From the NCBI RefSeq assembly GCF_006345805.1, contig NC_043015.1, positions 28,520,001-28,584,000 on the forward strand: 64,000 nt of DNA, read 5' to 3'. The stretch is from Octopus sinensis (taxonomy: Eukaryota). The position numbers and the translations under genes are program-made. A model generated the notes under the pieces. The model was given only the letters and a program-made list of their open reading frames with translations. It made no database searches and was not told where the DNA came from. Shown here piece after piece: positions 22,709 through 54,186 of the stretch (within the stretch, counting starts at the first letter, position 1; each line of letters begins with the position of its first letter).

Positions 22709-22710
<2 letters not shown>

Positions 22711-23487: not shown

Positions 23488-24651
23488 TTATGTTGAAGGA
23501 TTTGTTACTTTACCAATGAAATGGATCATTTTAGTTCGGTTGTCAACAATTAAAAATGTGAATGGATGATTGACATCAAAATCTATACGATTTATAAAAA
23601 TTTGTGCTGACGCGAAGGTCATGACTATTCCAGTTGCAGCTGCAGCTTCCGTTCCTTCTTCATTAACATCAACAAATGCTTTATGAAACATTTCACTGGC
23701 ATAAATATTCTTCTCAGCACCAGTCATTCCAGATAAATCAGCTTTTAGAGGATCAAAAATATCAGAGAGTCCAAGCTTTTTCAAAACATCACCCAACTGA
23801 AAACTACTCTCTAAACAAAATTTTGGCATATGTAATTTTAGACACATCATTTGAAATCCTTTTCTGTCAACAATGTCTTTGAGAAATTGAGCATTAATCT
23901 CCTTCTCTAAAGCAGCAAGACCATTGATTTCATTGGGAAGAATTACAAACATACTAAATGCTTTCCCTATATAAGGTAACTCAACCACTTTATAGTTGTC
24001 ACTTATTTTTGTATTAAAACCTTCAGATAGATACATAAAATCATGAGATACAGTCTTGTCAGAGCTTAAATAAAACTTTCTAGATGATGTTGCTTTTTTT
24101 CCGAATGTTTCAGCCCACGTTCCTTTGAAGTATACAGCATTAATAAGAACTAGAACCGATTGAGGTGTCAAACTTCCACTTGGTAACAGATCAGTAATTT
24201 TGTTATTTGTGTTATTCTTAACCCAATCATTAATAGTTATTCTTGTCTTCTCAGCATTTGTTATAAAGTCTACATTTTCAATATCTGAAAAGAAATATTT
24301 TACCATGTTGTTCTTGTAGTCTTCTGAAATAGGGAATTTTTCATTGGCACACAAACGATTCACTAAATTGGATGTGACGAGTTTATCTGAGTTTTTCAAA
24401 AGTGAAAAATATTCTTTAAAAGCTAAAGCTACAGAATCTGGATTTGATGTTATCTTCAAAACATTTTCAAACTGTTTGGAAGAGTTTTGTCTTGCTCCCA
24501 AATAAACCATTGATAAAACAGTAGCAACACTGAATGGTGACATGAAGACATTTTCATTGATTCCTGTAGCCACAGCTTGATAAAGACTGTTTGTAAAATA
24601 ATCAATTGAAGCGGCAAGGTTACTGATGTCTTGTTTCTTTGCTGAGTCCAT
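23488..24651 (-). CDS. serpin copy 1, 387 aa, intact, SERPINB/leukocyte elastase inhibitor-like; RCL TGIVMTFA|SAQ
   Basis: NVFMSPFS, INDWV, NAVYFKGTW, hinge EEGTEAAAAT, FDVNHPF..LI; no signal peptide; single coding exon. Confidence 0.97.
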   Translation of the reverse strand: MDSAKKQDISNLAASIDYFTNSLYQAVATGINENVFMSPFSVATVLSMVYLGARQNSSKQFENVLKITSNPDSVALAFKEYFSLLKNSDKLVTSNLVNRLCANEKFPISEDYKNNMVKYFFSDIENVDFITNAEKTRITINDWVKNNTNNKITDLLPSGSLTPQSVLVLINAVYFKGTWAETFGKKATSSRKFYLSSDKTVSHDFMYLSEGFNTKISDNYKVVELPYIGKAFSMFVILPNEINGLAALEKEINAQFLKDIVDRKGFQMMCLKLHMPKFCLESSFQLGDVLKKLGLSDIFDPLKADLSGMTGAEKNIYASEMFHKAFVDVNEEGTEAAAATGIVMTFASAQIFINRIDFDVNHPFTFLIVDNRTKMIHFIGKVTNPST

Positions 24652-24668
24652 ATTGTATACGATAGTAT

Positions 24669-24700
24669 CTGGAGAATATAGAATATGAAGAGAAAATATA
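24669..24700 (-). promoter_or_regulatory. 3' splice acceptor 17 nt upstream of the serpin ATG
   Basis: ttttctcttcatattctatattctccag|atactatcgtatacaatATG; conserved in copies 2, 3, 4 and 7. Confidence 0.7.
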
Positions 24701-25243
24701 CAGAATAAATTCTTGCAAACATTTCAAAATATTTTATTAGACATTACTGTAATTAGAGACATCTATAAAAGCAAAGTCTGAAATCTCTTCTGAACAAACT
24801 CTAATTTTAACTTTTACATGAACATATTTCTTAACATAACACAGAGTTAATGTGTTTTAAACAGTTTTTAAAACAATTAAAAATTTATATGATTAATTAA
24901 TATAACCATTTTTTTCTCCAATATTTATCTGATATTTGGCACATATCTTAAAAGTTTCATTTATAAGATGATGTTGGAACTTAACCATGTTTGCATTTCA
25001 GAGACAAATTTGAATGGAGCAGGTTTAGTTTTCATTTTTTGCATATATGGTAAGATAAGGTATCAAGTACAATGATATACTCCACCTGCTGAGAGCCTGG
25101 TCAAATACTTGCAACAAAATGACATCCTCAAAAAAGGCCTAAATGTGCCTGGAGGTGATGTTGAACTAATTAGTGTAATACCAAGCTAGACCGGATCCTG
25201 TAAACCTAGACTCAATGGTTAATATTTAGTTTGTAGAATGACC

Positions 25244-25522
25244 TGTGGGATGACGTCAGCAGCTGGGTGCGTTGACCGGAAGCTGGGGCAACCGGAAGGG
25301 GCTGCTGTCAGGCGTGCGCAGGCAGCAGTCAATTGGGCCTTTCCAACGTGGGTCGTCCAAATGACAAGACGTGTGAGGATGGTGGCGAAGGGTCTGGGTG
25401 AGCAGCTGCTATCTTTAGTGTTCGGGTTGGAGCTGTGTCGAAGGATTAGCTACCACAGAAGGGTCTCCATCACGAGGAAGAGAAGGTAGGTGCCTTTATA
25501 TTCAAATCGTGCACACACCACA
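25244..25522. mobile_element. solo-LTR-like insertion, 279 bp
   Basis: TGTGG...CCACA with 5-bp TSD TGACC; empty sites agaatgaccgtgtg at ~12841 and ~54210. Confidence 0.85.
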
Positions 25523-26039
25523 TGACCGTGTGAAGGAGAGGTGACGAGAATGTCTCCTTTAGTACGCCGCACGGTCGATTACAATAAATAGGAAAAAGGA
25601 TGAATGAGTATGAATGCCAGCAGGAAAAGAGAGACACAACCAGTAGAATGTTTAAGAGAAAGATTTTATTGATAGGTTAACATGTGTGTCTGTGTGTGTG
25701 TCATGTATATATAATAATAGACAGGCCGTCATGTATACATAATGTGTGTGCAGAAACGTGGATGTATGCGTGTGCGATAAGTACAGAGCATTGAAAGAGT
25801 CTATAATAGGACGTTAGAAGAATGCAATGCAGAGCCAGTTGAGGCACATGTCATGCGTGAAGCTGTGGCTACTATGCAGAGCCGGTTACTTGGTACAGAA
25901 GGTTCTCGCAGGTTGTATCTGCTGTTAACCATGGTGAAATAATTCCTGAACAGTGTTGAGTAGAGGCCATTGATTGGTTAAAATCTGAAAAATTAAACTA
26001 CGTTAAACTTACAAATTACAATTTTCTCAAGAGAGCCAG

Positions 26040-27060
26040 AAATTGTGTTGAAAACTGCCGTTCAAAAGGAAAAGATCCTCTTTTTCTGCAAGGCCTTCCA
26101 CATGACCATATCACGCCATCCGACAAATTTTTTTTGGCTACATCCTTCAAGGAACATTTCTAGAGAATAGTAAGTTAAAGTGCGAGCAGATTATTGATAT
26201 TTTATATTATTGGGCAAAAGAAGATTTAGCAAAGGGAATAGCCCAGGAATGCCGTATAGATTGGAGAAATTTTTGCTGTGATATATGTGCAGAATATTAT
26301 GTTGCACAAAACATTAAGCTCGGAGGGCCAAACTGAATTGTAGAGATAGATGAAAGAGCGTTTGTTAGAAGAAAATATAATGTTGGCCATCAGGTTAAAA
26401 CGCAGTGGGTTTTTGGTGCTTTGGAAAGGGATACTAGAAGATGGTATTTGGTGGCAGTGGAAGATCGGACTGCGGACACTCTTTTAGAAATTATACAAGA
26501 GCGTATATAGCCTGGTACAACTGTAATTTCTAACCTCTGGCGTTCGTATAATACGCTCAATCAGCTAGGATATAGGCATTTGACTGTGAATCATCATCAT
26601 CATCATCATCATCGTTTAACGTCCGTTCTCCATGCTAGCATGGGTTGGACGGTTCGACCGGGGTTCTGGGAAGCCAGAAGGCTGCACCAGGCTCCAGTCT
26701 AATCTGGCAATGTTTCTACAGCTGGATGCCCTTCCTAACGCCAACCACTCCGTGAGTGTAGTGGGTGCTTTTTACGTGCCACCTGCACAGGTGCCAGGCG
26801 AGGCTGGCAACGGCCACGGTCAGATTGGTGTATTTTATGTGCCACCGGCAATAAATTTTGTTGATCCGGTAACATTTGCCACAACCAACCACATAGAATG
26901 TTTATGGAAGCATGTAAAGAATCGTAACAAAAGAGAAAATGGAACAGCCCGAAATTTACTTCAATCCCATCTCATTGAATTCATGTGGCATTATGAATTT
27001 AAGGACGAAATCTTTGGAAAGTTATTGGAACAAATTCAACATCTATACCCATGCATTTGA
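26040..27060 (+). pseudogene. Merlin-like transposase pseudogene with SINE insertion
   Basis: paralogue of 13360-14399. Confidence 0.85.
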
Positions 27061-27636
27061 AACGTTACAGAATAGAAGTATCTACAAAGCATTTGTTTTA
27101 TATTTCATTAAATTCTCTCAGTTGAAAATTATATTTTTATCTTCTAAATAATTTGCAATTTCAGAAAATATATTAACTTTGCATTTTTTAATTTGATAAG
27201 TTCTACGGAAACAAACAAGTGACGTCAGATTGAAGTCACACTTTCTTTTACTTTCCTCCTGACAGCTAATTCCGTAGTGGTGCCTGTAACAGGATGTAGC
27301 GCAACTACGTGCTCTTTTGTTTTCTTACACACACGCCGCCTCAATTCAGGTGGGGTAAACATTTAAATTAACATTTTTTTGTTGATGCTCATATCCCACC
27401 AATGGAGCACACGTGTGGCCCACTGGTATAATCATTAAAGGGGATGAGGAGTAAAAAAAAAAAAAATCATAAATTTTCCAAACCATTTTTTCATAACAAG
27501 ATGTTTCCCATCATTTCGAAGGTTGCGGTGAAAAACAATCGGGAAAACCCAGTCAAAAGGGAGAAATTCCAACTTATGTGGTCTTCTTGATCGGAAACTC
27601 CTCTCCCTGCTCCCTAAAAAATTTTTCCACCAGAAA

Positions 27637-28693
27637 GGCAATGTTTCGTTTGTAGTAGCACGCTTGTAGCACGTTTCCGTCGATTTCTGTAAAAAACTTT
27701 TATTTTTTTTACATATGGCTTTGCGGGAACATTTGAAGTAATGAGAGCGAAAGAGACTAAGAGGAAGCGATTTTATGACGAGGAAATTTCTTTTGAAGCT
27801 ATGAAAGCATTGATGTACGTGTGTGTGTGTGTTTGATGGGGTGTGGGAGACAGACAGTATGTTGTGTAAGTGAAGTGCTTCTGTTAGTGTGTGTGAAGAG
27901 ACAGAGAGAGTAATGTGTGAAAGAGAGAGATAACTGAAATTTTTTACTCGATTTATGGCTGCATGTATGTGTGTGTGTGTATGTATCTATGTATGTGTGT
28001 GTGTATGTATGTGTGTGTGTATGTATGTGCGCATGTATCTATGTATGTGTGTGTGTATGTATGGCCGATTCAGTAATTTTTTACTCGGTGTATGTGTATA
28101 TGTATGTCTGAATGTATGTATGTATGTGTGTATGTATCTATGTATCTGTGTATGTGTATGTATGTATGTATTTATGGCCGATTCAGTCTAATTTTTTACT
28201 CGGTGTATGTGTATATGTATGTCTGCATGTATGTATGTGTGTGTATGTATCTATGTATGTGTGTGTGTGTGTAAGTATGTGTAAAAAATTACACTGAATC
28301 GGCCATACATACATACATACATACTTACACATACATACATAGATACATACACACACACATACATATATACATACATCGAGTAAAAAATTTCAGTTATCTC
28401 TCTCTTTCACACATTACTCTCTCTCTGTCTCTTCACACACACTAACAGAAGCACTTCACTTACACAACATACTGTCTGTCTCCCACACCGCATCAAACAC
28501 ACACACACGTGTACATCAATGCTTTCATAGCTTCAAAAGAAATTTCCTCGTCATAAAATCGCTTCCTCTTCGTCTCTTTCGTTCTCATTACTTCAAATGT
28601 TTTTTTACGGAAATCGACGGAGGAAATCGACAATCGACGGAGGAAATCGACGGAAACGTGCTACAAGCGTGCTACTACAAACGAAACATTGCC
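27637..28693. mobile_element. foldback MITE, GGCAATGTTTCG...CGAAACATTGCC
   Basis: ~310 bp inverted arms around (TG)n/(CA)n microsatellites; GG-starting TIR consistent with Merlin. Confidence 0.85.
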
Positions 28694-28698
28694 GAAAT

Positions 28699-29029
28699 GG
28701 CAATGTTTCGTTTGTAGTAGCACGCTTGTAGCACGTTTCCGTCGATTTCCGTAAAAAACTTTTATTTTTTTACATATGGCTTTGCGGGAACATTTGAAGT
28801 AATGAGAGCGAAAGAGACTAAGAGGAAGCGATTTTATGACGAGGAAATTTCTTTTGAAGCTATGAAAGCATTGATGTACGTGTGTGTGTGTGTTTGATGG
28901 GGTGTGGGAGACAGACAGTATGTTGTGTAAGTGAAGTGCTTCTGTTAGTGTGTGTGAAGAGACAGAGAGAGTAATGTGTGAAAGAGAGACATAACTGAAA
29001 TTTTTTGCTACTACAAACGAAACATTGCC
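28699..29029. mobile_element. second, internally deleted MITE in tandem
   Basis: both TIRs present, right arm missing. Confidence 0.8.
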
Positions 29030-29246
29030 CCATTGGCTCCTGAAAGTTATGAGGGAAAAAATCGGATTGTGTGAATTTTCCGAAAGTCCTCTCCTCCTCT
29101 CCGTTTCGTTTACGCAAATTTTGTTTTCCAGATTCGTTAACTTTTTTCTTCTTGTTCTGGTGGCCAGGTATTAAACTTGTAGTGTGATGGATGAAGAAGA
29201 CAACAGAAAAAGAAGCAACGGGAGAAAGAAATACAAAAGGCCTTAC

Positions 29247-29372
29247 CTCTTCGAAATCAGCGGTCTCTTTCACGAATTCTACACGTCTTAACGCTTTCCC
29301 GTCTATGTTGGAACTGTCCTGCTTGACAAACTCCTGCTGCGCATGCATTCTGCAGTCTTCCGCCCACTTCAT
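29247..29372 (-). other. unidentified exon-like segment MKWAEDC...KETADFEE followed by a splice donor (also at 36702-36827, 56437-56562; truncated at 15362-15450)
   Basis: ATG, 42 open codons, GAG|gtaagg; CpG-rich; function unknown. Confidence 0.4.
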
Positions 29373-31138
29373 CTATCACCAGTGCACCACTTAGCTCATC
29401 ACATCCTATAACACCGACTGCCAACACCACAAAACTAGGTAGTAACCGATTCGCTGGCAGAAAAGTTAGCACGACGGGCGAAATGCTTAGCGGTATTTCG
29501 TCAGCGATACGTTGTGAGTTCAAATTCCGCCATGGTCGAGTTTGCCTTTCATCCTTTCGTGGTCGATAAATTAAGTACCAGTTACGCACTGGGGTCGATG
29601 TAATCGACTTAATCCCTTTGTCTGTCCTTGTTTGTCCATTCTGTGTTTAGCCCCTTGTGGGTAGTAAAGAAATATATATTTAAGTATGCTGTGCATGAGA
29701 AGATCTGGGAGGCCAAGTAAGACCATAAGCCATGACCTCAACATGGGATGTAGCCAATCCACTTATGCATACCTTTCCTTCTAGGGACACAAAACTCTGC
29801 TTGTGAAGACCTGTTGAGGCAAGTGAAAATCAAAATCGAAATTGATGAACATCAATGGAAATTGCAGCTGTGATACCAGTGCCGGTGGTATGTAAGAGAA
29901 CCATCCGAACGTGGCCGTTGCCAGCGCCACCCCGTCTGGCCTCGGAAAAAGCACCCACTACACTCACGGAGTGGTTGGCATTAGGAAGGGCTTCTTAACT
30001 ATACAGCAACAACTGTACTCTAGAAAATTTGACTGCTCCTGGGTGGGCTTGCACCATTTATTTTTTAGTCCGTTGCCAGCCCCGCCTGGCCCTCGTGCCG
30101 GTGGCACGTAAAAAGCACCATCCGACCGTGGCCGTTTGCCAGCCCCATCTGACACCTGTGCTGGTGGCACGTAAAAAGCACCCACTACACTCACGGAGTG
30201 GTTGGCGTTAGGAAGGGCATCCAGCCATAGAAAAACTGCCAGATCAGACTGGGCCTGATGCAGCCTTCTGGCTTTCCAGACCCCAGTTTGAACCGTCCAA
30301 CCCATGCTAGCACGGAAAGCGGACGCATGATGATGATGATGATCATGATGATGATGATTTGTTTGCATCTTGCTTAATATTTTCAAATATTTTTTTAAAT
30401 GGAAATGTTGGTTTGTAAATATTAAATGAAGCCCCATCACTGGAATTTCAGTAACAGCAACAAAAATAGAAAAGTAGATGGGAATTTCTTCACTGATTCT
30501 TGTTCTACTTATAGATAGAACATTCTAGAATAGACGGTATATATTCTCTTTGCTACCTTGAGAATATATATGTATATGGTACATTGGCTGTTAACTTTCC
30601 AAAAGTTTTGTAATGCCGCAATTATTGAAACAATGTAATTAGTTTATCAAGATCCAAGACATAATTACGAAGGGTGAACACGGGCGCTCAAAAATTTCGA
30701 ATGTCTAAATTTAAAACAAAGAATATAAAAGCCAGATGCAATCAACACATACATAGTAATGGAATATTTACTGAGATACTTTATTAATATGAAACATACA
30801 AATATTGATTTCACTTTATTCAACCAGAAAATAACGTTTACAGGCAACAGTAGATATATTGTTAAAATAGTAAACTTGCAAAGAAAGGATACTTTAAAAA
30901 GTGTCAAATTTTTCTGTCAATGTATGGCATATACAAATTCATAATATTGATTTAGATTAATGTGGTATTATAATATATCATTGAATAGATATGACCTTGG
31001 TTCTACACAATTACAATTATAATGTCCTAAGTCATTTTACTAAAAAAACGATTCTAAATAAATTTGTTCAGTTACATTCTCCACATAATACAATGTAGTA
31101 TTCCATAAGAGGGAAATCTTTGACAGGGCAATATCATC

Positions 31139-32299
31139 TCATGTTGTAGGATTTGTTACTTTACCAATGAAATGGATCATTTTAGTTTGGTTGTCAACAA
31201 TTAAAAATGTGAATGGGTGATTGACATCAAAATCCATAGGCATACCAAAATAGCCTGACAAATCCATCGCGAACATTCCAGTTGCAGCTGCAGCTTCCGT
31301 CCCTTCTTCATTAACTTCAACAAATGCTTTATGAAACATTTCACTGGCATAAATATTCTTCTCACCACCAGTCATTCCAGATAAATCAGCTTTTTGAGGA
31401 TCAAAAATATCAGAGAGTCCAAGCTTTATCAAAACTTCACCTAACTGAAAACTACTCTCTAAACGAAATTTTGGCATACGTAATTCTAGAAACAACCCTT
31501 CAAATCCTTTTCTGTCTATAATATCTTTGAGAAATTGAGCATTGATCTCCTTCTCTAAAGCAGCAAGACCATTGATTTCATTGGGAAGAATTACAAACAT
31601 ACTAAATGCTTTCCCTATATAACGTAACTCAACCACTTTATAGTTGTCACTTATTTTTGAATTAAAACCTTCAGATAGATACATAAAATCATGAGATACA
31701 GTCTTGTCAGAGCTTAAATAAAACTTTCTAGATGATGTTGCTCTTTCTGAGAATATTTCAGCCCACGTTCCTTTGAAGTATACAGCATTAATAAGAACTA
31801 GAACCGATTGAGGTGTCAAACTTCCACTTGGTAACAGATCAGTAATTTTGTTATTTGTGGTATTCTTAACCCAATCATTAATAGTTATTCTTGTCTTCTC
31901 AGCATTTGTTATAAAGTCTACATTTTCAATATCTGAAAAGAAATATTTTACCATGTTGTTCTTGTAGTCTTCTGAAATAGGGAATTTTTCATTGGCACAC
32001 AAACGATTCACTAAATTGGATGTGACGCGTTTATCTGAGTTTTTCAAAAGTGAAAAATATTCTTTAAAAGCTAAAGCTACAGAATCTGGATTTGATGTTA
32101 TCTTCAAAACATTTTCAAACTGTTTGGCAGAGTTTTGTCTTGCTCCCAAATAAACCATTGATAAAACAGTAGCAACACTGAATGGTGACATGAAGACATT
32201 TTCATTGATTCCTGTAGCCACAGCTTGATAAAGACTGTTTGTAAAATAATCAATTGAAGCAGCAAGGTTACTGATGTCTTGTTTCTTTGCTGAGTCCAT
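31139..32299 (-). CDS. serpin copy 2, 386 aa, intact; RCL TGMFAMDL|SGY
   Basis: same scaffold motifs as copy 1. Confidence 0.97.
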   Translation of the reverse strand: MDSAKKQDISNLAASIDYFTNSLYQAVATGINENVFMSPFSVATVLSMVYLGARQNSAKQFENVLKITSNPDSVALAFKEYFSLLKNSDKRVTSNLVNRLCANEKFPISEDYKNNMVKYFFSDIENVDFITNAEKTRITINDWVKNTTNNKITDLLPSGSLTPQSVLVLINAVYFKGTWAEIFSERATSSRKFYLSSDKTVSHDFMYLSEGFNSKISDNYKVVELRYIGKAFSMFVILPNEINGLAALEKEINAQFLKDIIDRKGFEGLFLELRMPKFRLESSFQLGEVLIKLGLSDIFDPQKADLSGMTGGEKNIYASEMFHKAFVEVNEEGTEAAAATGMFAMDLSGYFGMPMDFDVNHPFTFLIVDNQTKMIHFIGKVTNPTT

Positions 32300-32890
32300 A
32301 TTGTATACGATAGTATCTGGAGAATATAGAATATGAAGAGAAAATATACAGAATAAATTCTTGCAAACATTTCAAAATATTTTATTAGACATTACTGTAA
32401 TTAGAGACATCTATAAAAGCAAAGTCTGAAATCTCTTCTGATCAAACTCTAATTTTAACTTTTACATGAACATATTTTTAACATAACACAGAGTTAATGT
32501 GTTTTAAACAGTTTTTAAAATAATTAAAAATTTATATGATTAATTAATATAACCATTTTTTTCTCCAATATTTATCTGATATTTGGCACATATCTTAAAA
32601 GTTTCATTTATAAGATGATGTTGGAACTTAACCATGTTTGCATTTCAGAGACAAATTTGAATGGAGCAGGTTTAGTTTTCATTTTTTGCATATATGGTAA
32701 GATAAGGTATCAAGTACAATGATATACTCCACCTGCTGAGAGCCTGGTCAAATACTTGCAACAAAATGACATCCTCAAAAAAGGCCTTAATGTGCCTGGA
32801 GGTGATGTTGAACTAATTAGTGTAATACCAAGCTAGACCGGATCCTGTAAACCTAGACTCAATGGTTAATATTTAGTTTGTAGAATGACC

Positions 32891-33169
32891 TGTGGGATGA
32901 CGTCAGCAGCTGGGTGCGTTGACCGGAAGCTGGGGCAACCGGAAAGGGCTGCTGTCAGGCGTGCGCAGGCAGCAGTCAATTGGGCCTTTCCAACGTGGGT
33001 CGTCCAAATGACAAGACGTGTGAGGATGGTGGCGAAGGGTCTGGGTGAGCAGCTGCTATCTTTAGTGTTCGGGTTGGAGCTGTGTCGAAGGATTAGCTAC
33101 CACAGAAGGGTCTCCATCACGAGGAAGAGAAGGTAGGTGCCTTTATATTCAAATCGTGCACACACCACA
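32891..33169. mobile_element. solo-LTR-like insertion (copy)
   Basis: TGTGG...CCACA, TSD TGACC. Confidence 0.85.
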
Positions 33170-33689
33170 TGACCGTGTGAAGGAGAGGTGACGAGAATGT
33201 CTCCTTTAGTACGCCGCACGGTCGATTACAATAAATAGGAAAAAGGATGAATGAGTATGAATGCCAGCAGGAAAAGAGAGACACAACCAGTAGAATGTTT
33301 AAGAGAAAGATTTTATTGATAGGTTAACATGTGTGTCTGTGTGTGTGTGTCATGTATATATAATAATAGACAGGCCGTCATGTATACATAATGTGTGTGC
33401 AGAAACGTGGATGTATGCGTGTGCGATAAGTACAGAGCATTGAAAGAGTCTATAATAGGACGTTAGAAGAATGCAATGCAGAGCCAGTTGAGGCACATGT
33501 CATGCGTGAAGCTGTGGCTACTATGCAGAGCCGGTTACTTGGTACAGAAGGTTCTCGCAGGTTGTATCTGCTGTTAACCATGGTGAAATAATTCATGAAC
33601 AGTGTTGAGTAGAGGCCATTGATTGGTTAAAATCTGAAAAATTAAACTACGTTAAACTTACAAATTACAATTTTCTCAAGAGAGCCAGA

Positions 33690-34727: not shown

Positions 34728-34751
34728 AACGTTACAGAATAGAAGTATCTA

Positions 34752-36484: not shown

Positions 36485-37772
36485 CCATTGGCTCCTGAAA
36501 GTTATGAGGGAAAAAATCGGATTGTGTGAATTTTCCGAAAGTCCTCTCCTCCTCTCCGTTTCGTTTACGCAAATTTTGTTTTCCAGATTCGTTAACTTTT
36601 TTCTTCTTGTTCTGGTGGCCGGGTATTAAACTTGTAGTGTGATGGATGAAGAAGACAACAGAAAAAGAAGCAACGGGAGAAAGAAATACAAAAGGCCTTA
36701 CCTCTTCGAAATCAGCGGTCTCTTTCACGAATTCTACACGTCTTATCGCTTTCCCGTCTATGTTGGAACTGTCCTGCTTGACAAACTCCTGCTGCGCATG
36801 CATTCTGCAGTCTTCCGCCCACTTCATCTATCACCAGTGCACCACTTAGCTCATCACATCCTATAACACCGACTGCCAACACCACAAAACTAGGGAGTAA
36901 CCGATTCGCTGGCAGAAAAGTTAGCACGACGGGCGAAATGCTTAGCGGTATTTCGTCAGCGATACGTTCTGGGTTCAAATTCCGCCAAGGTCGACTTTGC
37001 CTTTTATCCTTTCGGGGTCGATAAATTAAGTACCAGTTACGCACTGGTGTCGATGTAATGGACTGAATACCTATGTCTGTCCTTGTTTGTCCCCTCTGTG
37101 TTTAGCCCCTTGTGGGTAATAAAGAAATAGCTATCCCAGACACTCCTATTAGATTGATACAGAAATTAACCGTTTTCTTATTTTTCAAGGTAGGATATGA
37201 TTTTAGGAAGATTTGGCTGGTCTATTGACCACGTAGGGGTTTTCTCTTTGACTCATATCTAGATTTTGATGTCAGCCAAGTTTTTTAAAGAATGAAAGTT
37301 TTCGAAAATGAACACGCTAATAATAAATAATTTCCATTATTTTATTTCATACAAAAACATTCGGTTAATGTGAATAACTTGTCTTATTTTATCTAAAAAG
37401 ACGAAGTGAAAAAAAAAAAAGAATTTAATCTGCTACATGGTGAAGTTTTGCCGTGATTTGACTTTCAAATAATGCATGACAAAACTATGGAATGTCGTCG
37501 ATAATGAAGAGACTTTGCGAGGAAAGTTCGAGCGACGTGGCAATGAATGTGAAGTAATTAGTATGTCGAGTTTCGTTCCTTGCTGATAGAGTTAAAATGG
37601 GAGAAACATTTTTGTTTTAAAATTTCTATAGCGCAAAATAGAAGTTAACTGCAGCATAAAGTAGAAAAGAAGTTCTGCCGACGACCACGTAGACTGCAGT
37701 TGACTCCAGAATGTGTACGGTAGACTAATTAACGATCTCGGCGTATAATGTGTGATGAACCAGAAATAATAA

Positions 37773-41713: not shown

Positions 41714-41752
<39 letters not shown>

Positions 41753-42297: not shown

Positions 42298-42338
<41 letters not shown>

Positions 42339-42514: not shown

Positions 42515-42697
42515 AAATTAAAACTATTCTTATAATCTTTCATTGCATAGATATGTCCATGGTTCTGCACAATTACAACTATAATGGTTTAAGTCATTCT
42601 ACTCAAAAATATTGTAAATGGATTTGCTGAGTTACGTTGTCTACATAATACAATCTAGTATCCCATAAGAGAAAAATCTTTGACAAGACAATATCAT

Positions 42698-42873
42698 CTA
42701 TATCGTGGGGTTTGTTACTTTACCAATGAAATGGATCATTTTAGTTCGGTCATCAACAACTAAAAACGTGAATGGGTGATTGACATCAAATTGCATCCCA
42801 ATTCTCGACATATAATTTGAGACCACCATTCCACTTGCAGCAGCAGCTTCCGTTCCTTCGTATATAGTCGTAT
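42698..42873 (-). pseudogene. serpin copy 3: orphan acceptor + hinge/RCL/C-terminus cassette
   Basis: ttctccag|atacgactatatac joined in frame to GAAGGAACG (EGTEAAAASGMVVSNYMSRIGMQFDVNHPF...KVTNPTI*); ATG and ~1 kb of scaffold deleted. Confidence 0.9.
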
Positions 42874-42929
42874 CTGGAGAATATAGAATATGAAGAGAAA
42901 ATATACAAAATAAATTTGTATAAACATTT

Positions 42930-43235
42930 GAGGCTACTGACCAGATCTCTAGATGGTGCAAAGTTCCCTTTCATCCCAAGGTAACATGGTGGTGGAACAA
43001 TGTAGTTGACAGGGTCATTAGGGAAAAGAAACAGGCATGGAAAGACTGGAAGAACAGTGGTAGCAGGGAATTGTATCAGATCGCCAGAAGGGAAACTAGG
43101 AGACAGGTTTACTTAGTCAGAGGGGAAGCAGATAAGAAAAAAATTTGTCAATGTTCTGTGTCGTGAGGACCAAAGACTTAAAGTGTTTTGTGTTGCAAGA
43201 CAGTGTGTGAGAGAGAATCATGATGTTATAGGAGA
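42930..43235 (+). mobile_element. RTE-clade LINE ORF2 fragment
   Basis: translates to TWWWNNVVDRVIREKKQAWKDWK. Confidence 0.7.
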
Positions 43236-43321
43236 GACATACACACACACAAATACATGCATGCATGTACACGTACACACACACACATACACACTCATGC
43301 ATGCATATTTTTATTATGAGT

Positions 43322-44126
43322 TACTCTCTCTTTTACTCTTTTACTTGTTTCAGTCATTTGACTGCGGCCATGCTGGAGCACCGCCTTTAGTCGAGCAAAT
43401 CGACCCCGGGAATTATTCTTTGTATGCCCAGTACTTATTCTATCAGTCTCTTTTTGCCGAACCGCTAAGTGACGGGGACGTAAACACACCAGCATCGGTT
43501 GTCAAGCAATGCTAGGTGGACAAACACAGACACACAAACATATACACACACATACATATATACGACAGGCTTCTTTCAGTTTCCGTCTACCAAATCCACC
43601 CACAAGGCATTGGTCGGCCCGGGGCTATAGCAGAAGACACTTGCCCAACCCGGAACCATGTGCTTGGTTAGCAAGCTACTTACCACACAGCCACTCTGCG
43701 CCTATATAAATATTTCTGTATAAATATTTCAAAATGTTGAGTTAGTATGAAGGACATTGAGTAATTCTGCTTCAAAAAAATTAGATGAAAAACAAAACAA
43801 GAATAAAATAACTTGTTGGATTTATGAATGTTAAAAATCTCCAAACAATTATCAGATAATAGATGAACTGAGAACAATGGAATATTAGGCGTAGGAGTGG
43901 CTGTGTGGTAAGTAGCTTGTTAACCAACCACATGGTTCCAGGTTCATCCCACTGTGTGGCATCTTGGGCAAATGTCTTCTGCTATAGCCCCGGGCCGACC
44001 AATGCTGTGTGAGTGGATTTGGTAGACGGAAACTGAAAGAAGCCTGTCGTATATATATATGTATGTGTGTGTTTGTGTGTCTGTGTTTGTCCCCCTAGCA
44101 TTGCTTGACAACCGATGCTGGTGTGT
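43322..44126. mobile_element. two head-to-head SINEs (43322-43703 -, 43886-44126 + truncated)
   Basis: same family as 3197-3592; the second is cut off at the junction with the serpin-4 3' flank. Confidence 0.8.
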
Positions 44127-44664
44127 AAAAGTTTTGTAATGCCACAATTATTGAAACAATGTAATTATTTTATCAAGATCCAAGACATAATTACGAAGGG
44201 TGAACACGGGGGCTTAAAAATTTCGAATGTCTAAATTTAAAACAAAGAATATAAAAGCCAGATGCAATCAACACATACAAAATAATGGAATATTTACTGA
44301 GATACTTTATTAATATGAAGCATACAAATATTGATTTCACTTCATTCAACCAGAAAATAACGTTTACAGGCAACAGTAGATATATTGTTAAAATAGTAAA
44401 CTTGCAAAGAAAGGATACTTTAAAAAGTGTCAAAATTTTCTGTCAATGTATGGCATATACAAATTCATAATATTGATTTAGATTAATGTGGTATTATAAT
44501 ATATCATTGAATAGATATGACCTTGGTTCTACACAATTACAATTATGATGTCCTAAGTCATTTTACTAAAAAAACCATTCTAAATAAATTTGTTCAGTTA
44601 CATTCTCCACATAATACAATGTAGTATTCCCTAAGAGGGAAATCTTTGACAGGGCAATATCATC

Positions 44665-45818
44665 TCATGTTGTAGGATCTGTTACTTTACCAATGAAATG
44701 GATCATTTTAGTTCGGTCATCAACAACTAAAAACGTGAATGGGTGATTGACATCAAATTGCATCCCAATTCTCGACATATAATTTGAGACCACCATTCCA
44801 CTTGCAGCAGCAGCTTCCGTTCCTTCTTCATTAACATCAACAAATGCTTTATGAAACATTTCACTGGCATAAATATTCTTCTCACCACCAGTCATCCCAG
44901 ATAAATCAGCTTTTAGAGGATCAAAAATATCAGGGAGTCCAAGCTTTTTCAAAACATCACCCAACTTAAAACTACTCTCTAATGAAATTTTGGCATATTT
45001 AATTCTAGAAGCATCATTTTAAATCCTTTTCTGTCAACAATGTCTTTGAGAAATTGAGCATTAATCTCCTTCTCTAAAGCAGCAAGGCCATTGATTTCAT
45101 TGGGAAGAATTACAAACATACTAAATGCTTTTCCTATATAAGGTAACTCAACCACTTTATAGTTGTCGCTTATTTTGGTATTAAAATCTTCAGATATATA
45201 CATAAAATCATGAGATACAGTCTTGTCAGAGCTTAAATAAAACTTTCTAGATGAAGTTGCTTCTTCTGAGAATATTTCAGCCCACGTTCCTTTGAAGTAT
45301 ACAGCATTAATAAGAACTAGAACCGATTGAGGTGTCAAACTTCCACTTGGTAACAGATCAGTAATTTTGTTATTTGTGTTATTCTTAACCCAATCATTAA
45401 TAGTTATTCTTGTCTTCTCAGCATTTGTCATAAAGTCTACATTTTCAATATCTGAAAAGAAATATTTTACCATGTTTTTCTTGTAGTCTTCTGAAATAGG
45501 GAATTTTTCATTGGCACACAAACGATTCACTAAATTGGATGTGACAAGTTTATCTGAGTTTTTCAAAAGTGAAAAATATTCTTTAAAAGCTAAAGCTACA
45601 GAATCTGGATTTGATGTTATCTTCAAAACATTTTCAAACTGTTTGGAAGAGTTTTGTCTTGCTCCCAAATAAACCATTGATAAAACAGTAGCAACACTGA
45701 ATGGTGACATGAAGACATTTTCATTGATTCCTGTAGCCACAGCTTGATAAAGACTGTTTGTAAAATAATCAATTGAAGCAGCAAGGTTACTGATGTCTTG
45801 TTTCTTTGCTGAGTCCAT
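44665..45818 (-). pseudogene. serpin copy 4, full length with one -1 frameshift (~44981); RCL SGMVVSNY|MSR
   Basis: 1154 nt; plus strand ctctaatgaaa versus ctctaaacgaaa in intact copies; may be an assembly indel. Confidence 0.85.
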
Positions 45819-46410
45819 ATTGTATACGATAGTATCTGGAGAATATAGAATATGAAGAGAAAATATACAGAATAAATTCTTGCAAACATTTCAAAATATT
45901 TTATTAGACATTACTGTAATTAGAGACATCTATAAAAGCAAAGTCTGAAATCTCTTCTGATCAAACTCTAATTTTAACTTTTACATGAACATATTTCTTA
46001 ACATAACACAGAGTTAATGTGTTTTAAACAGTTTTTAAAATAATTAAAAATTTATATGATTAATTAATATAACCATTTTTTTCTCCAATATTTATCTGAT
46101 ATTTGGCACATATCTTAAAAGTTTCATTTATAAGATGATGTTGGAACTTAACCATGTTTGCATTTCAAAGACAAATTTGAATGGAGCAGGTTTAGTTTTC
46201 ATTTTTTGCATATATGGTAAGATAAGGTATCAAGTACAATGATATACTCCACCTGCTGAGAGCCTGGTCAAATACTTGCAACAAAATGACATCCTCAAAA
46301 AAGGCCTTAATGTGCCTGGAGGTGATGTTGAACTAATTAGTGTAATACCAAGCTAGACCGGATCCTGTAAACCTAGACTCAATGGTTAATATTTAGTTTG
46401 TAGAATGACC

Positions 46411-46689
46411 TGTGGGATGACGTCAGCAGCTGGGTGCGTTGACCGGAAGCTGGGGCAACCGGAAGGGGCTGCTGTCAGGCGTGCGCAGGCAGCAGTCAAT
46501 TGGGCCTTTCCAACGTGGGTCGTCCAAATGACAAGACGTGTGAGGATGGTGGCGAAGGGTCTGGGTGAGCAGCTGCTATCTTTAGTGTTCGGGTTGGAGC
46601 TGTGTCGAAGGATTAGCTACCACAGAAGGGTCTCCATCACGAGGAAGAGAAGGTAGGTGCCTTTATATTCAAATCGTGCACACACCACA
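46411..46689. mobile_element. solo-LTR-like insertion (copy)
   Basis: TGTGG...CCACA, TSD TGACC. Confidence 0.85.
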
Positions 46690-47343
46690 TGACCGTGTGA
46701 AGGAGAGGTGACGAGAATGTCTCCTTTAGTACGCCGCACGGTCGATTACAATAAATAGGAAAAAGGATGAATGAGTATGAATGCCAGCAGGAAAAGAGAG
46801 ACACAACCAGTAGAATGTTTAAGAGAAAGATTTTATTGATAGGTTAACATGTGTGTCTGTGTGTGTGTCATGTATATATAATAATAGACAGGCCGTCATG
46901 TATACATAATGTGTGTGCAGAAACGTGGATGTATGCGTGTGCGATAAGTACAGAGCATTAAAAGAGTCTATAATAGGACGTTAGAAGAATGCAATGCAGA
47001 GCCAGTTGAGGCACATGTCATGCGTGAAGCTGTGGCTACTATGCAGAGCCGGTTACTTGGTACAGAAGGTTCTCGCAGGTTGTATTTGCTGTCAACCATG
47101 GTGAAATAATTCATGAACAGTGTTGAGTAGAGGCCATTGATTGGTTAAAATCTGAAAAATTAAACTACGTTAAACTTACAAATTACAATTTTCTCAAGAG
47201 AGCCAGAAATTGTGTTGAAAACTGCCGTTCAAAAGGAATAGATCCTCCTTTTCTAATTGAAACCATTTTTCTGCAAGGCCTTCCACATGACCATATCACG
47301 CCATCCGACAAATTTTTTTTGGCTACATCCTTCAAGGAACATT

Positions 47344-47726
47344 TCTACATTTTCAATATCTGAAAAGAAATATTTTACCATGTTGTTCTTGTAGTCTTCT
47401 GAAATAGGGAATTTTTCACTGGCATACAAACGATTCACTGAATTGAATGTGACGAGTTTATCTGAGTTTTTCAAAAGTGAAAAATATTCTTTAAAAGCCA
47501 AAGCTACAGAATCTGGATTTGATGTTATCTTCAAAACATTTTCAAACTGTTTGGCAGAGTTTTGTCTTGCTCCCAAATAAACCATTGATAAAACAGTAGC
47601 AACACTGAATGGTGACATGAAGACATTTTCATTGGTTCCTGTAGCCACAGCTTGATAAAGACTGTTTGTAAAATAATCAATTGAAGCAGCAAGGTTACCG
47701 ATGTCTTGTTTCTCTGCTGAGTCCAT
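47344..47726 (-). pseudogene. serpin copy 5, N-terminal third only, fused to Merlin sequence
   Basis: MDSAEKQDIGN...SDIENV then Merlin-unit sequence; tcta microhomology at 47344-47347. Confidence 0.9.
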
Positions 47727-48271
47727 ATCGTATACGATAGTGTCTAGAGAATATAGAATATGAAAAGAAAATATACAAAATAAATTCTGGCAAACATTTC
47801 AGTATATTGTAGAAGACATCTATGAAAGCAATGTCTGAAATCTCTTCTGTTCAAACTTTAAATTTAACTTTTACATGAACATATTTTGTACGGTAACACT
47901 CAATATGATTTAAATAGATTTTAAAATAATTAAAAATTTATAAGATTTAATAATATAACCATTTCTTTCTTCCATTCTTTATGTGGCTTTTGGCACATAC
48001 CTTAAAATGATGTTGAAATGTTTTAGCTTAAATACGGTGATTATTTACAAAATAGATTTGAACATTATGTATCACATTTAGAATACAGTTAGGAAACAAT
48101 AAAATTTGGGTTTTTGCATAAATCATTTCAGACCATTTTCATACAGAATTCTTAGATCACATTAGTGTGTTTTACACTCTCTTGAAATATTGAACAGGAA
48201 CTGTTTTTCAGGAAATTCTTTTGCATTTCATCTCTTCATATTGTATATTCTTTAGATGCCACGGAAATAAT

Positions 48272-49304
48272 ATGGACTAAGCAAAGAAACAAGACTTCGG
48301 TAACCTCGCTGCTTCAGTTGATTATTGTACAAAGAGTCTTTTTCAAGCTGTGTCTACAGGAACCGTTGAAAATGTTTTCATGTCACCATTCAATGTTGCT
48401 ACCGTTTTATCAATGGTTTATTCTGGAGCAAGACAAAACTCTGCCAAACAATTGAAAATATTTTGAAAATAACTTTAAATACAGATCCTGTAATTTGAGG
48501 TTTTAAAGAATATTTTTCACTTTTGAAACACTCAGATGAACTTATTGCATTGAATTCAGTCAATTGTTTTAGTGCCAATGAAAAATTTCGTATTTCAGAA
48601 GACTAAAAGAACATTATTGCAAAAAATTTCTTTTCAGATATTGAAAATGTAGACTTCATGACAAATATTGGAAAAGGAAGAATTAATATTAATTACAATG
48701 TTGTAAGACAACAAGATGCTAGAATTGTTAGTATGCTGGGCAAAATACTTAGTAGCAATTTGTCCATCTTGACATTCTGGAGTTGACATTGTCATCCTTT
48801 AGGGTTTGACAAAATAAGTACCAATTGAGCACTTGTGTTGCTGTAATTGATTTACCCCTACAATTAAATTGCTGGCCTTGCACCAAAATTTGAAAGCAGT
48901 TTTAATGATTGTGCTGAAAATAACACAAATAACATAATTACCGATCTCCTAACAATTTGAAGTTGACACCTCAGTCGGTTCTAGTTCTTATTAATGCTGT
49001 GTACTTGAAAAGAATATGGCATAAAATATTCCTATAAAAAGCAACATCATCTAGAAAGACAATTTTAGCACAAAAATAAGCAACAGCTCTACAGTTGTTG
49101 AGTTACCTTATATAGGAAAAGCATTTAGTATGTTTGTAATTCTTCCCAATGAAATCAATGGCCTTAATGCTTTAGTGAAGGAGATTAATGCTCAATTTCT
49201 CAAAGATATTGTAGACAGAAAAGGGATTTGAAATGATGCTTCTAGAATTAAATATGCCAAAATTTCGTTTAGAGAGTAGTTTTAAGTTGGGTGATGTTTT
49301 GAAA
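48272..49304 (+). pseudogene. serpin copy 6, inverted and decayed
   Basis: atggactaagcaaag start with stop, many stops and indels, SINE at ~48700-48895, internal deletion; ends at ...FKLGDVLK without an RCL. Confidence 0.9.
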
Positions 49305-49997
49305 CCCTACAATCTGCTCAATCCAACTATAGGAAAACTGATCTTTCTTACTGTTTCCACCAATGGCACACCCTCTGAAATATTTTCAAATCACTCACTA
49401 CTGAAATGCAAACCGAGGCAAATTCATATGTAACCTGACACCACGATGCCTGATTACTCATCACAGGCAAGTGTTGTCCTTGAAATACCACATCCTGCTA
49501 AATGCTGGCCAAGTGACACAACCATCTTGCCTGCTTCACCACATGCCATCATCATCATCATCCATCATTTTGAATCCGGGTTTTGTCCTCATTAACGACG
49601 GTGGCTGGATCTACTTCAATGCCATAGCAATTGCCCTCACACCATCTCACACATTTTTCGGCAATCCTCCCTTCTCAAGCCAACCATCCCAATCACCTCC
49701 TCCACTTGTTCCCTCCACCTGTTCCACAGTCTATTTCGCTTTTGCCGTCCATTTCCCTCAGACTCTAGCACCCTCTTCACAACTTGCCCCTCATCCCTCG
49801 TGTAGCATCTGTTACAAGAAGCAGTTGTTGCTGAAATATCATACACTTAAGAATGTCATTCACTTGGCACCAACATTATGTTTGTTTCCCATAAATGAAT
49901 TGATGTCGCTATGAGAGCAATAACAACCAGATGACTCAAACTGATCATTGGAGATTTAAATACATCAGCCCTTAAGCCACTCCAGATTTATTTTAAA

Positions 49998-50393
49998 CTA
50001 GCAGTATCGCCCGGCGTTGCTCGGGTTTGTAAGGGAAATAACTATATAAGCATTTTTAGAGATGTAAAGTATAATAGCCATCTCAATATGGCTAACCACA
50101 AAGGGAGGGTGTTACTGTAGCTTTTTATGTTCTGAAATTTAATAATACATTTTTAGAGAGTTACTTCCCTTATATATGCCAAAAATGCATTAAAAATGGG
50201 GAAAATTGATGGTAAATTATTTTTAAAATCGTAGACTCATCGTAGATGCGCGCTATTACCCAGAAGGGCTCGATATGAATCACGACTATAAGATACCCGG
50301 TTTTGGTTAAACTGTACTGCAAAATGTGGGAGTAGTTAGGAATCTAAATCGTAGGAGACAGACAGCACACAACCTCACTTTTATATATAAAGA
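49998..50393 (-). mobile_element. non-autonomous Helitron, 396 bp
   Basis: minus strand A|TCTTTATATATAAAAG ... CCCGAGCAACGCCGGG hairpin ... CTAG|T. Confidence 0.85.
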
Positions 50394-51936
50394 TTCTCTT
50401 AACTCTCTCCTTAAATATCGGATGATGTGAAAATGTTTGCAATTTCGAAAGTTTTAAATGATGTGCCATAGTCAAAGTTTTATTAAACTGAATATATTGG
50501 GTGATACTTTCTCTTGTTCACTCATTCTTATATATGTATACACACAAACGGGTGTATATATATAACGTATACATGTTTACTCTCCCAGACTCTAGGCTTA
50601 TGTGTCTCATTTGCTCTTTTCCTCTACTGGGCATTCCATCCTGCCGCAGTTTTCATCAGATCAACTGATCCCACGGATTTGAGTCTGCTTCATAAGGTTT
50701 TAACTTATGCGGTATCCATTATCCATTTCCATATTACTTTATGTAGAAAGAAAAGGCTTTCTTCTTTTCTCTACAACAATATTTGTGCCATTTAAATTTC
50801 CCTCTCAGCAAAAAGTATTTTTGTGTTGAAAATATATTCTCAAATCATATTTTCTAATAATTTATTTAAGTTGTTAAGATGTATATTATGTCACTTTATC
50901 TATGAGGTCTGATCAAAAATTATCCGGCCTTGTGCTATAAAAAAAAAACTACAACACATATTAATTCAGCATTTAATCCTCTTTGAAGTAGTCCCATTCT
51001 GAAGCTACACAAATGACCCAACATTGTTTCCATTCATGGATGCTTTATGTACCATACACAGTATAAATACATCACAAAATTTCAATTTACTGCAGTATAT
51101 ATCTCCAGATAATATCCTTTAAGAACATGCTGCATATAAAAATACAATATATATTGAAGGCAGATGAAAATTGTTCTAGTTGCAAGTATGCTAGTTTCTA
51201 GCTGCAGCTGGTGAGTGTGTTAGATGTATTTCTGCCTCATCTAAGCAGCTGGTTGCCTATGAGTATATGCTATTGATAGCATCCAACAGGACCTGAATGC
51301 ATCTAGTATCCTCACCAACCAACCAACCAACCACTGCTAGGACAATCTTCATATGCCTGATATAAATAGCATTTTCAAACACAGCATATCATTGTGAGGT
51401 TTTATCTCTGTATGAATACTGTATTGAATCAATGTAATTTTTTAATGAAGATCTAAGACTAAAATACCAGAGACTATCAAGAGGGCTGAAGAAGTTGAAA
51501 TGTCTACATTTGTAACAAAGCTATTAAAAGCCAGTTGCAATTAACACATACATTAAAATGGAATATTTACTGAGATGCTTTATTAATATAAACAGAAATA
51601 AAAACATACAAGCATTGATTTCATTTTATTTAACCAGTAAATAATGTTTACAGGCAACAATAAGTATATTGTTAAAATAATAAACTTGCAAAGAAAGGAT
51701 ACTTTAAAAAGTGTCATATTTTTCTGTCAATATATGGCAAGTACAAATTGATAATATTGATTTAGATTAATGTGGTATTATAATATATCATTGAATAGAT
51801 ATGACCTTGGTTCTACACAGTTACAATTATAATGTCCTAAGTCATTTTACTAAAAACAATTCTAAATAAATTTGCTCAGTTACATTCTCCACATAATACA
51901 ATGTAGTATTCCAAACTTTGACAGGGCAATATCATC

Positions 51937-53100
51937 TTATGTTGTAGGATTTGTTACTTTACCAATGAAATGGATCATTTTAGTTCGGTTGTCAACAATT
52001 AAAAATGTGAATGGGTGATTGACATCAAAATCCAAGGGATTTATAACAAGTCTTCCTTTACATGGCACTAAGCGGGCCTTAGTTGCAGCTGCAGCTTCCG
52101 TTCCTTCTTCATTAACTTCAACAAATGCTTTATGAAACATTTCATTGGCATAAATATTCTTCTCACCACCAGTCATTCCAGATAAATCAGCTTTTAGAGG
52201 ATCAAAAATATCAGAGAGTCCAAGCTTTTTCAAAACTTCACCCAACTGAAAACTACTCTCTAAACGAAATTTTGGCATATGTAATACTAGAAGCATCATT
52301 TTAAATCCTTTTCTATCTATAATATCTTTGAGAAATTGAGCATTAATCTCCTTCTCTAAAGCAGCAAGACCATTGATTTCATTGGGAAGAATTACAAACA
52401 TACTAAATGCTTTCCCTATATAAGGTAACTCAACCACTTTATAGTTGTCGCTTATTTTTGTATTAAAATCTTCAAATTTAAACATAAAATCATGAGATAC
52501 AGTCTTGTCAGAGCTTAAATAAAACTTTCTAGATGATGTTGCTTTTTTTCCGAATGTTTCAGCCCACGTTCCTTTGAAGTATACAGCATTGATAAGAACT
52601 ACAACCGATTGAGGTGTCAAACTTCCACTTGGTAACAGATCAGTAATTTTGTTATTTGTGTTATTCTTTACCCAGTCATTAATAGTAATTCTTGTCTTCT
52701 CAGCATTTGTTATGAAGTCTACATTTTCAATATCTGAAAAGAAATATTTTACCATGTTGTTCTTGTAGTCTTCAGAAATAGGGAATTTTTCATTGGCGCA
52801 CAAACGATTCACTAAATTGGATGTGACAAGTTTATCTGAGTTTTTCAAAAGTGAAAAATATTCTTTAAAAGCCAAAGCTACAGAATCTGGATTAGAAGTT
52901 ATCTTCAAAACATTTTCAAACTGTTTGGCAGAGTTTTGTCTTGCTCCCAAATAAACCATTGATAAAACAGTAGCAACACTGAATGGTGACATGAAGACAT
53001 TTTCATTGGTTCCTGTAGCCACAGCTTGATAAAGACTGTTTGTAAAATAATCAATTGAAGCAGCAAGGTTACCGATGTCTTGTTTCTTTGCTGAGTCCAT
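51937..53100 (-). CDS. serpin copy 7, 387 aa, intact; RCL TKARLVPC|KGR
   Basis: same scaffold; start taken at MDSAKK because the ATG at 53148 lies upstream of the conserved acceptor. Confidence 0.97.
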   Translation of the reverse strand: MDSAKKQDIGNLAASIDYFTNSLYQAVATGTNENVFMSPFSVATVLSMVYLGARQNSAKQFENVLKITSNPDSVALAFKEYFSLLKNSDKLVTSNLVNRLCANEKFPISEDYKNNMVKYFFSDIENVDFITNAEKTRITINDWVKNNTNNKITDLLPSGSLTPQSVVVLINAVYFKGTWAETFGKKATSSRKFYLSSDKTVSHDFMFKFEDFNTKISDNYKVVELPYIGKAFSMFVILPNEINGLAALEKEINAQFLKDIIDRKGFKMMLLVLHMPKFRLESSFQLGEVLKKLGLSDIFDPLKADLSGMTGGEKNIYANEMFHKAFVEVNEEGTEAAAATKARLVPCKGRLVINPLDFDVNHPFTFLIVDNRTKMIHFIGKVTNPTT

Positions 53101-54110: not shown

Positions 54111-54186
54111 TTGCGTGTGCGCACATTGGAATATGACGTCAGTACAAGTGTACTACCAAGCTAGACCGGATCCTGTAAACATAAAC

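Follow-up and report, generated by a model that had tools for sequence, protein, structure and literature searches.

Serpin copies in the window and the surrounding array

The window analysed here, a 64,000-nucleotide stretch of the Octopus sinensis genome (contig NC_043015.1, positions 28,520,001 to 28,584,000), holds the far end of a tandem array of serpin genes, the proteins of which are named 'leukocyte elastase inhibitor-like' in the database. Six-frame translation of the window detected four serpin copies on the minus strand, referred to as A to D, and three fragments. The four copies, which had been predicted from the DNA letters, lie at 24651-23488, 32299-31139, 45818-44665 and 53100-51937 of the minus strand, and the quoted loops were recovered exactly. 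The coding exons and reactive-centre loops are as follows.

23488..24668, minus strand: coding exon of copy A, an intact 387-residue serpin without signal peptide (acceptor 24668, ATG 24651, stop 23490-23488)
23581..23634, minus strand: loop of copy A, TGIVMTFASAQIFINRID, canonical P1-P1' Ala-Ser with Phe at P2
31139..32316, minus strand: coding exon of copy B, an intact 386-residue serpin (acceptor 32316, ATG 32299)
31232..31282, minus strand: loop of copy B, TGMFAMDLSGYFGMPMD, canonical P1-P1' Leu-Ser with Asp at the 16th hinge position
44665..45835, minus strand: copy C, a pseudogene with a 1-base deletion near 44984 and a stop at codon 280
44802-44758, minus strand: loop of copy C, SGMVVSNYMSRIGMQ, out of frame, P1-P1' Y-M
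51937..53117, minus strand: coding exon of copy D, an intact 387-residue serpin without signal peptide (ATG 53100)
52030..52083, minus strand: loop of copy D, TKARLVPCKGRLVINPLD, canonical P1-P1' Cys-Lys with Pro at P2

Copies A, B and D each matched the Pfam Serpin profile (PF00079) with E of about 1e-108 over profile positions 4-370 of 370. The inhibitory hinge EEGTEAAAA (P17-P9), followed by a small P8, was confirmed as intact in all four copies, and in a 52-sequence alignment the breach, shutter and gate residues S38, S41, W179, F183, F193, F357, H361, P362 and F363 were invariant. Copy B carries Arg at residue 226, where Pro is nearly invariant in the same alignment; this residue belongs to the turn that follows a strand of sheet B, close to the base of the loop. 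The AlphaFold model of copy B (mean predicted local confidence, pLDDT, 89) has an exposed, low-confidence loop, and the best solved fold match of an array serpin was SERPINB3/B4 (PDB 2zv6; TM-score 0.87-0.88, 33-35% identity). Each intact body is most likely a standard suicide-substrate serpin, in which the loop and the adjoining surface of sheet C would choose the protease. Counted on the alignment, P1 Arg393 of antithrombin is the 17th residue from the first hinge Glu, and the hinge register proposed earlier, with P1-P1' of A-S, L-S, Y-M and C-K, proved right by this aligned chain. From the identity of P1 and P2 alone, an elastase- or cathepsin-like target is predicted for A, an elastase-like target for D, and a chymotrypsin-like target for B, with a possible second site at Asp one residue earlier. 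The canonical register of B is Leu-Ser, aligned with the conserved P1-P1' of the family, and Asp stands at the 16th position. A register one residue short is presumably that of CrmA. Serp-2 carries Asp at P1 according to the available text of PMC3458838, and CrmA and Serp-2 are treated in the available parts of PMC5889911, PMC10526531 and PMC3458838.

The frameshift of copy C leads to a stop before the loop, so that the Y-M loop is not translated. Two further copies, both beyond the window, share this 1-base deletion, and gene models of O. vulgaris show the shifted frame; with three copies affected and these models in agreement, a sequencing error was ruled out. Four other copies outside the window carry single-base breaks. 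The loops of the four window copies differ at 41-60% of bases, far above the upstream intron of A, B and C (0.2-0.8%); a loop divergence no greater than that of the flank had been named beforehand as the outcome that would speak against the original prediction. Near identity of the N-terminal halves and 5' flanks was borne out for A, B and C, codons 1-175 differing by 0.8-1.1%, and was overstated for D, which differs by 3% in codons 1-175 and by about 5% over the final 500 bases of the intron, with mostly non-homologous sequence upstream of these. The description of the loops as unrelated and impossible to align at the DNA level was not confirmed, and the loops are homologous. Against 2000 shuffles, four of the six window pairs aligned at p<0.02 (A-B, z 4.3; B-D and C-D did not), and each of the four loops aligned with some loop elsewhere in the array at p<=0.001. 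The loop of B is colinear with an ALSAQ-type loop, from which it differs by point changes and a 6-base insertion.

The array was surveyed over 244 kb of the same contig from the window start. Over about 195 kb, 22 full-length single-exon serpin bodies were found, of which 15 are intact and 7 broken, and their loops fall into about ten types; about 150 kb of the array lies beyond the window, and no serpin was found in the 10 kb preceding it. The protein of copy A is present three times in identical form. An inverted plus-strand block at contig positions 28701000-28732500, beside a 100-N gap, is 99.3-99.5% identical to 20.7-54.1 kb of the window, and could stem from a very recent inverted duplication or from misplacement of a haplotype. 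Since four of the 22 bodies sit in this block, 22 may overstate the number of copies.

Two gene structures

All bodies begin at an identical splice acceptor, with no difference in phase; in the window copies the ATG follows it by 17 bases. Upstream of this acceptor two arrangements were found. Exons for a signal peptide, which the database models of relatives carry, number only two in the 244 kb, with none in the window. The RefSeq proteins, from which the exon structures were deduced, join the first signal exon to three different loops (two matched exactly to bodies), and a fourth isoform is without it; in O. bimaculoides records one signal peptide likewise occurs on two loops. The six bodies that follow the signal exon, hereafter the proximal tier, all have 45-base loops, and no long terminal repeat (LTR) donor was found between the signal donor and these six bodies. 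In the distal tier, seven minus-strand LTR donors each stand ahead of a body with a loop of 51-54 nucleotides. Three of the window copies have such a donor, whereas copy C is without an LTR exon of its own.

29178..29431, minus strand: solo LTR (TG...CA) upstream of A, donor GAG|GTAAGG after 29247
36633..36886, minus strand: solo LTR upstream of B, donor after 36702
56368..56621, minus strand: solo LTR upstream of D, donor after 56437; contigs align over 56440-56727

At B the non-coding exon of this type reaches back to about 36990 or further, within a dispersed repeat, and ends at 36702. The LTR exon matches, at 77-91%, both terminal repeats (about 320 bp) of two elements, L057 and L059. In elements with such repeats Pfam zf-CCHC and RVT_3 scored above the cut-off and aspartyl protease, RNase H and rve below it, and the order protease-RNase H-integrase suggests a Gypsy-like element. 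The family has many dispersed copies with terminal repeats of about 320 bp (243 bp in element L058) that are about 95% alike, and the solo LTRs of the window are about 65 bases shorter.

Use of the LTR donor was looked for in contigs from four sequencing runs aligned to positions 44000-57500 of the window. A joint of the body start to a local upstream LTR-type exon was observed in three of the four runs, from three studies, and fits GAG|GTAAGG and CAG|ATAC, of the GT-AG type. Removal of a GT-AG intron argues that the source of these contigs was RNA. The letters of the contig are those of copy B at nine of nine diagnostic sites, with no further difference over 638 bases; its 29 differences from D are those expected for B, and the 48-base replacement of the loop fits only B-type copies. 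The copy that supplied the upstream exon is ambiguous: the contig has 7 differences to the exon of D, and the candidate exons have 5-7. The expectation that the copies are expressed is supported in that at least copy B is transcribed and spliced. In two runs the C and D loops were without contigs and the bin depth equalled the share of the B contig alone (for example, 1342.2 x 307/451 = 913.7), which does not imply silence, as contigs drop rare variants. A genome search gave, among the matches listed, no copy of the exon ending at the donor.

Copies A, B and D have no hydrophobic N-terminus (hydropathy 0.65-0.69, vs 2.2-3.2 in signal-bearing relatives), and by this check they lack a cleavable signal peptide, which is not so for the proximal tier. 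As a non-coding LTR exon takes the place of the signal exon, the proteins of the distal tier are likely to be cytosolic. A single signal exon serving all bodies was ruled out for B by the contig joint, and was kept for the proximal tier on the RefSeq models only.

Amino-acid change in loops, scaffold patches and related species

Selection was analysed in ten intact, non-identical copies, with exact or near-exact duplicates and broken copies left out. Among close loops, 16 non-synonymous and 2 synonymous changes were counted for four short loops, and 7 and 0 for three long loops; the amino-acid rate of the short loops was 0.44, vs a scaffold silent rate of 0.12 (p=1e-5). The proposed diversification on a shared scaffold holds up inasmuch as change is focused on the loop and mostly alters amino acids, and falls short in that one of the four copies is a pseudogene. 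Amino-acid variation of the scaffold clustered at residues 177-190, 202-211 and 265-275, and a column-shuffle window scan, which is unbiased, gave P=0.006 and 0.0003 for the two strongest patches. The three patches together held 35 non-synonymous and 2 synonymous changes, the rest of the scaffold 52 and 47. For six LTR-tier copies the corresponding patch count was 24 to 2 and the patch rate exceeded the silent rate (p=0.003), while the ratio of non-synonymous to synonymous rates (dN/dS) outside the patches was about 0.22; for five signal-tier copies the patch rate was not above the silent rate.

In the model of copy B, the patches correspond to the loop after strand 167-176 and to strands 199-216 and 267-276. 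Residues 207 and 209 align to antithrombin Tyr253 and Glu255, and residue 274 to His319. By antitrypsin numbering, antitrypsin residues 199-204 would presumably fall on residues 184-189 here. An antitrypsin exosite at 199-204 is given in the available text of PMC12001179, and the title of a reference in that paper places an antithrombin exosite at Tyr253/Glu255 on strand 3C. The original prediction had missed these co-diversifying patches, as well as the frameshift of copy C, the further 150 kb or so of array and the two-tier structure.

Twelve distinct loops were recovered from O. vulgaris records; a short-protein database search for further loop variants gave three matches at E<=1e-25, of which one was useful. 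All six short loop types of this genome were identical in O. vulgaris, whereas none of its six intact long loops matched any of the six long O. vulgaris loops. Four orthologue-like scaffold pairs between the two genomes were 96-98% identical. The ALSAQ loop type is almost unchanged in O. bimaculoides, and a close form with signal peptide occurs in Argonauta; this recurrence suggests that a secreted short-loop gene is likely ancestral. A scaffold tree of 23 rows, built without the three fused models of O. vulgaris, placed the seven long-loop rows that it contained in one group (98/98).

Diversification of a putative cytosolic tier

It appears probable that the distal, LTR-led units are cytosolic inhibitors, the loops and exosite strands of which were driven apart by diversifying selection from changing proteases. 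The proximal tier is likely to be conserved, secreted and under stabilising selection. An ancestral gene with a signal exon and a body with a Leu/Met-Ser loop would have duplicated its body exon in tandem. One body would then have gained an LTR donor, and this unit would have been amplified by unequal crossing-over; exchange between copies would have homogenised introns and N-terminal halves, with loops and exosites kept different. The distal tier would on this scheme have arisen once, by capture of the LTR donor, and have diversified at the protease-contact surface as a likely cytosolic form. Judged from the complete turnover of long loops between close species, parasite or microbial proteases would be the likeliest driver.

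Several points weigh against this reading. The substitution figures are minimum-change counts made without a tree, with recombination outside the model, and the windows of the 35-to-2 patch count were drawn after the variable columns had been seen. By Fisher test the short loops show no significant excess over the scaffold (p=0.08), and the comparison of long-loop rates gave p=0.07. Distant loops differ also at many synonymous sites (5-7 of 9-13), a high silent divergence that fits old lineages shielded from conversion as well as it fits selection. A single origin of the LTR tier makes loop length and exon type one event. The species contrast is between one assembly per species and could be haplotype polymorphism, and the LTR exon is described from this genome only. 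The runs with spliced contigs are without an RNA record, and only B was matched by contigs; since the contigs extend past the LTR by about 100 bases on its upstream side, where a different dispersed repeat lies, the LTR is shown as a donor and not as a promoter. The LTR exon contains five upstream ATGs, two of which begin an open reading frame out of step with that of the serpin; it extends across the serpin start with an overlap of 70 codons and could suppress translation.

Part of this evidence leads to the unlikely alternative that the pattern is mostly non-adaptive, old or unconstrained loops having become too different for gene conversion while scaffolds were homogenised, with recombination and relaxed constraint on an exposed loop doing the rest. 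Besides the silent divergence of distant loops and the 7 broken bodies among the 22, it draws on mosaic relationships along the gene: copy B is 2-3 bases from copies A and E over nucleotides 1-330, and nearest to copy J over nucleotides 781-1017. The silent saturation and the shifting neighbours indicate that recombination contributes. In the scaffold tree, two O. bimaculoides scaffolds with different loops grouped together (99/93) though one of them has a Y-M loop like that of this genome. The clade test for loop lineages older than scaffolds, or shared across species, gave p-AU (approximately unbiased test) 0.066; grouping of the two Y-M scaffolds is not rejected, and homogenisation across species is also unproven. 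Against this explanation stand the preponderance of amino-acid change in close loops (16 to 2 and 7 to 0), the excess of the short-loop rate over the silent rate, and the LTR-tier patches, which exceed it too. An account that keeps both structure and selection, and that we rate as rather improbable, takes the targets to be the octopus's own intracellular proteases (granule, lysosomal, possibly caspases), like those of vertebrate clade B serpins. The leaderless form and SERPINB3/B4 as closest solved relatives fit it, as do the Asp at the 16th hinge position of B, the Asp-Gly kept there in a chromosome-1 paralogue of three species, and the expression of caspases in octopus haemocytes given in the available text of PMC4199593. 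Host proteases would not be expected to change wholly between species with scaffolds 96-98% identical, and the Leu-Ser of B aligns with the conserved P1-P1' of the family.

The two remaining alternatives concern the structure of the locus itself. All bodies might be last exons of one gene, alternatively spliced to the same signal exon, much as insect serpin-1 does with its cassettes but with whole domains exchanged, to yield secreted variants; the shared acceptor and phase of every body agree with it, and so do the RefSeq models joining one leader to three proximal bodies and the presence of only two signal exons in 244 kb. We regard it as very improbable for the locus as a whole, because the only 5' joint listed for a window-type body leads to the local LTR exon (the contigs cover 44000-57500, with the signal exon outside, and rare use is possible), and between the signal exon and the intact window bodies there are 106-135 kb with many acceptors and poly(A) signals. 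Scarcely credible is an assembly artefact in part of the array, in which both haplotypes were written in tandem and some 'paralogous' loops are alleles. The plus-strand block by the 100-N gap, which mirrors part of the window, and the threefold identical protein of copy A are of the kind expected from it; A to D nevertheless lie in one gap-free stretch with different flanking insertions, and the C-type frameshift and a deleted fragment recur in O. vulgaris models. Such an artefact would lower the copy number, not the loop diversity.

A bolder form of the preferred reading of cytosolic diversification is conceivable and rather doubtful: a single LTR insertion would have provided a duplicated serpin exon with a new first exon, moved it from secretion to the cytosol and founded a quickly renewed set of species- or haplotype-specific traps against parasite proteases, their loops and exosite strands evolving jointly. 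B would also act as a caspase trap through its Asp site, and the secreted tier alongside, itself frozen, would be produced by whole-domain alternative splicing from one signal exon. Loop diversity by itself would be ordinary; what makes the locus of interest is its two-tier structure, together with the exon derived from an LTR and the exosites that vary along with the loops. In the literature searched, mostly outside subscription journals, no description was found of the array, of an LTR-led serpin tier or of a cephalopod case. Hypervariability of serpin loops is a classic of accelerated evolution, of which the driver is rarely identified. This locus offers a built-in control, with near-identical scaffolds, one tier frozen between close species and one fully turned over. 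As the tiers apparently differ in the destination of the protein, it becomes testable whether compartment and target class set the rate of loop evolution. If true, the reading would give a concrete diversifying immune-effector locus in cephalopods, relevant to octopus aquaculture, and an example of a gene family re-routed by an exon from a retrotransposon.

Vertebrate clade B serpins are not known to carry a cleavable signal peptide. Loop hypervariability in tandem serpins is established, as far as the available texts go, in rodents (PMC12646145), primate SERPINB3/B4 (PMC4136820) and ticks (PMC13116602). The rodent SERPINA1/SERPINA3 arrays (woodrat, PMC12646145) resemble the octopus array in that tandem duplicates give paralogues with different P1, and their loops are enriched for positively selected codons, with different targets among paralogues; unlike here, they encode multi-exon secreted plasma proteins with activities shown, and the available part of the paper has no LTR-led leaderless tier. 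Primate SERPINB3/SERPINB4 (available text of PMC4136820) are likewise young near-identical duplicates with a selected loop and one selected site in sheet C, but they are two genes of 7-8 exons, vs about twenty copies here; the clade B arrangement with the loop in the last exon is absent, the whole domain lying in one coding exon. The insect serpin-1 type (Pteromalus PpSerpin-1, available text of PMC10513286) shares with this locus both signal-bearing and leaderless forms and many loops. It swaps only a short loop exon, whereas in the octopus it is the exon for the whole serpin domain that is duplicated, and leaderless forms carry the LTR-derived exon; the hinge is not interrupted by an intron, every copy comes with a scaffold of its own, and whole-body alternative last exons appear only in the RefSeq models of the proximal tier. 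The Ixodes scapularis clusters (available text of PMC13116602) are also dense and tandem, with intronless serpins and with exact duplicates beside diverged paralogues, but encode mostly secreted salivary and gut proteins acting against vertebrate hosts, most pairs being under 70% identical.

Among other octopus serpins, OoSerpin, reportedly an octopus serpin and known from a reference title, and 'Serpin B10' of O. vulgaris resemble the array in being cephalopod serpins linked to immunity, as far as the sources go. An Amphioctopus database serpin, 60% identical to the array and with a signal peptide, is presumably OoSerpin. 'Serpin B10', raised in Aggregata infection according to the available text of PMC5736919, is the one infection-responsive octopus serpin found in the literature, and is a different paralogue: its primer matches exactly a 41%-identical copy at 48.85 Mb of the same contig, which rules out a link to the array. 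The available parts of PMC5736919 and PMC4199593 mention serpins only as transcripts. This second cluster at 48.85 Mb contains, besides the 41%-identical copy, two copies 62% identical to the array; database orthologues of these two have an altered hinge and are possibly non-inhibitory. A 77%-identical paralogue on chromosome 1 (23609604-23610752) has Asp-Gly at hinge positions 16-17, kept in records of this genome, O. vulgaris and O. bimaculoides while the preceding residues vary, and is to be preferred over copy B as a candidate Asp-site (caspase-type) serpin. Predicted 'multi-domain serpins' of O. vulgaris (P0121, P0129 and P0130; 571-1736 residues) look like fused gene models of neighbouring bodies, the fusion running through a donor near the C-terminus.

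The remaining serpin-related features of the window are listed below.

12817..15647, minus strand: unit remnant of intron sequence and a truncated LTR exon without donor, with no serpin body; it adjoins a 100-N gap at 12717-12816
42701..42873, minus strand: deleted derivative with the acceptor fused straight to the hinge, the Y-M loop and the C-terminus; it recurs in O. vulgaris gene models
47344..47743, minus strand: N-terminal serpin fragment of about 128 codons, with acceptor
48205..49304, plus strand: inverted decayed serpin fragment, 78-84% identical to A, with stops

An Rfam scan of the window gave no matches. Positions 16960-23020 and 57932-64000 form a 6-kb stretch that is 97% identical and part of the duplicated units, and each contains the remnant of a reading frame like that of a long interspersed nuclear element (19082-19510 and 60139-60738). 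Fragments resembling a DDE transposase, as judged by eye, lie in the serpin intron of duplicated units at 54882-55283 and 26620-27057.

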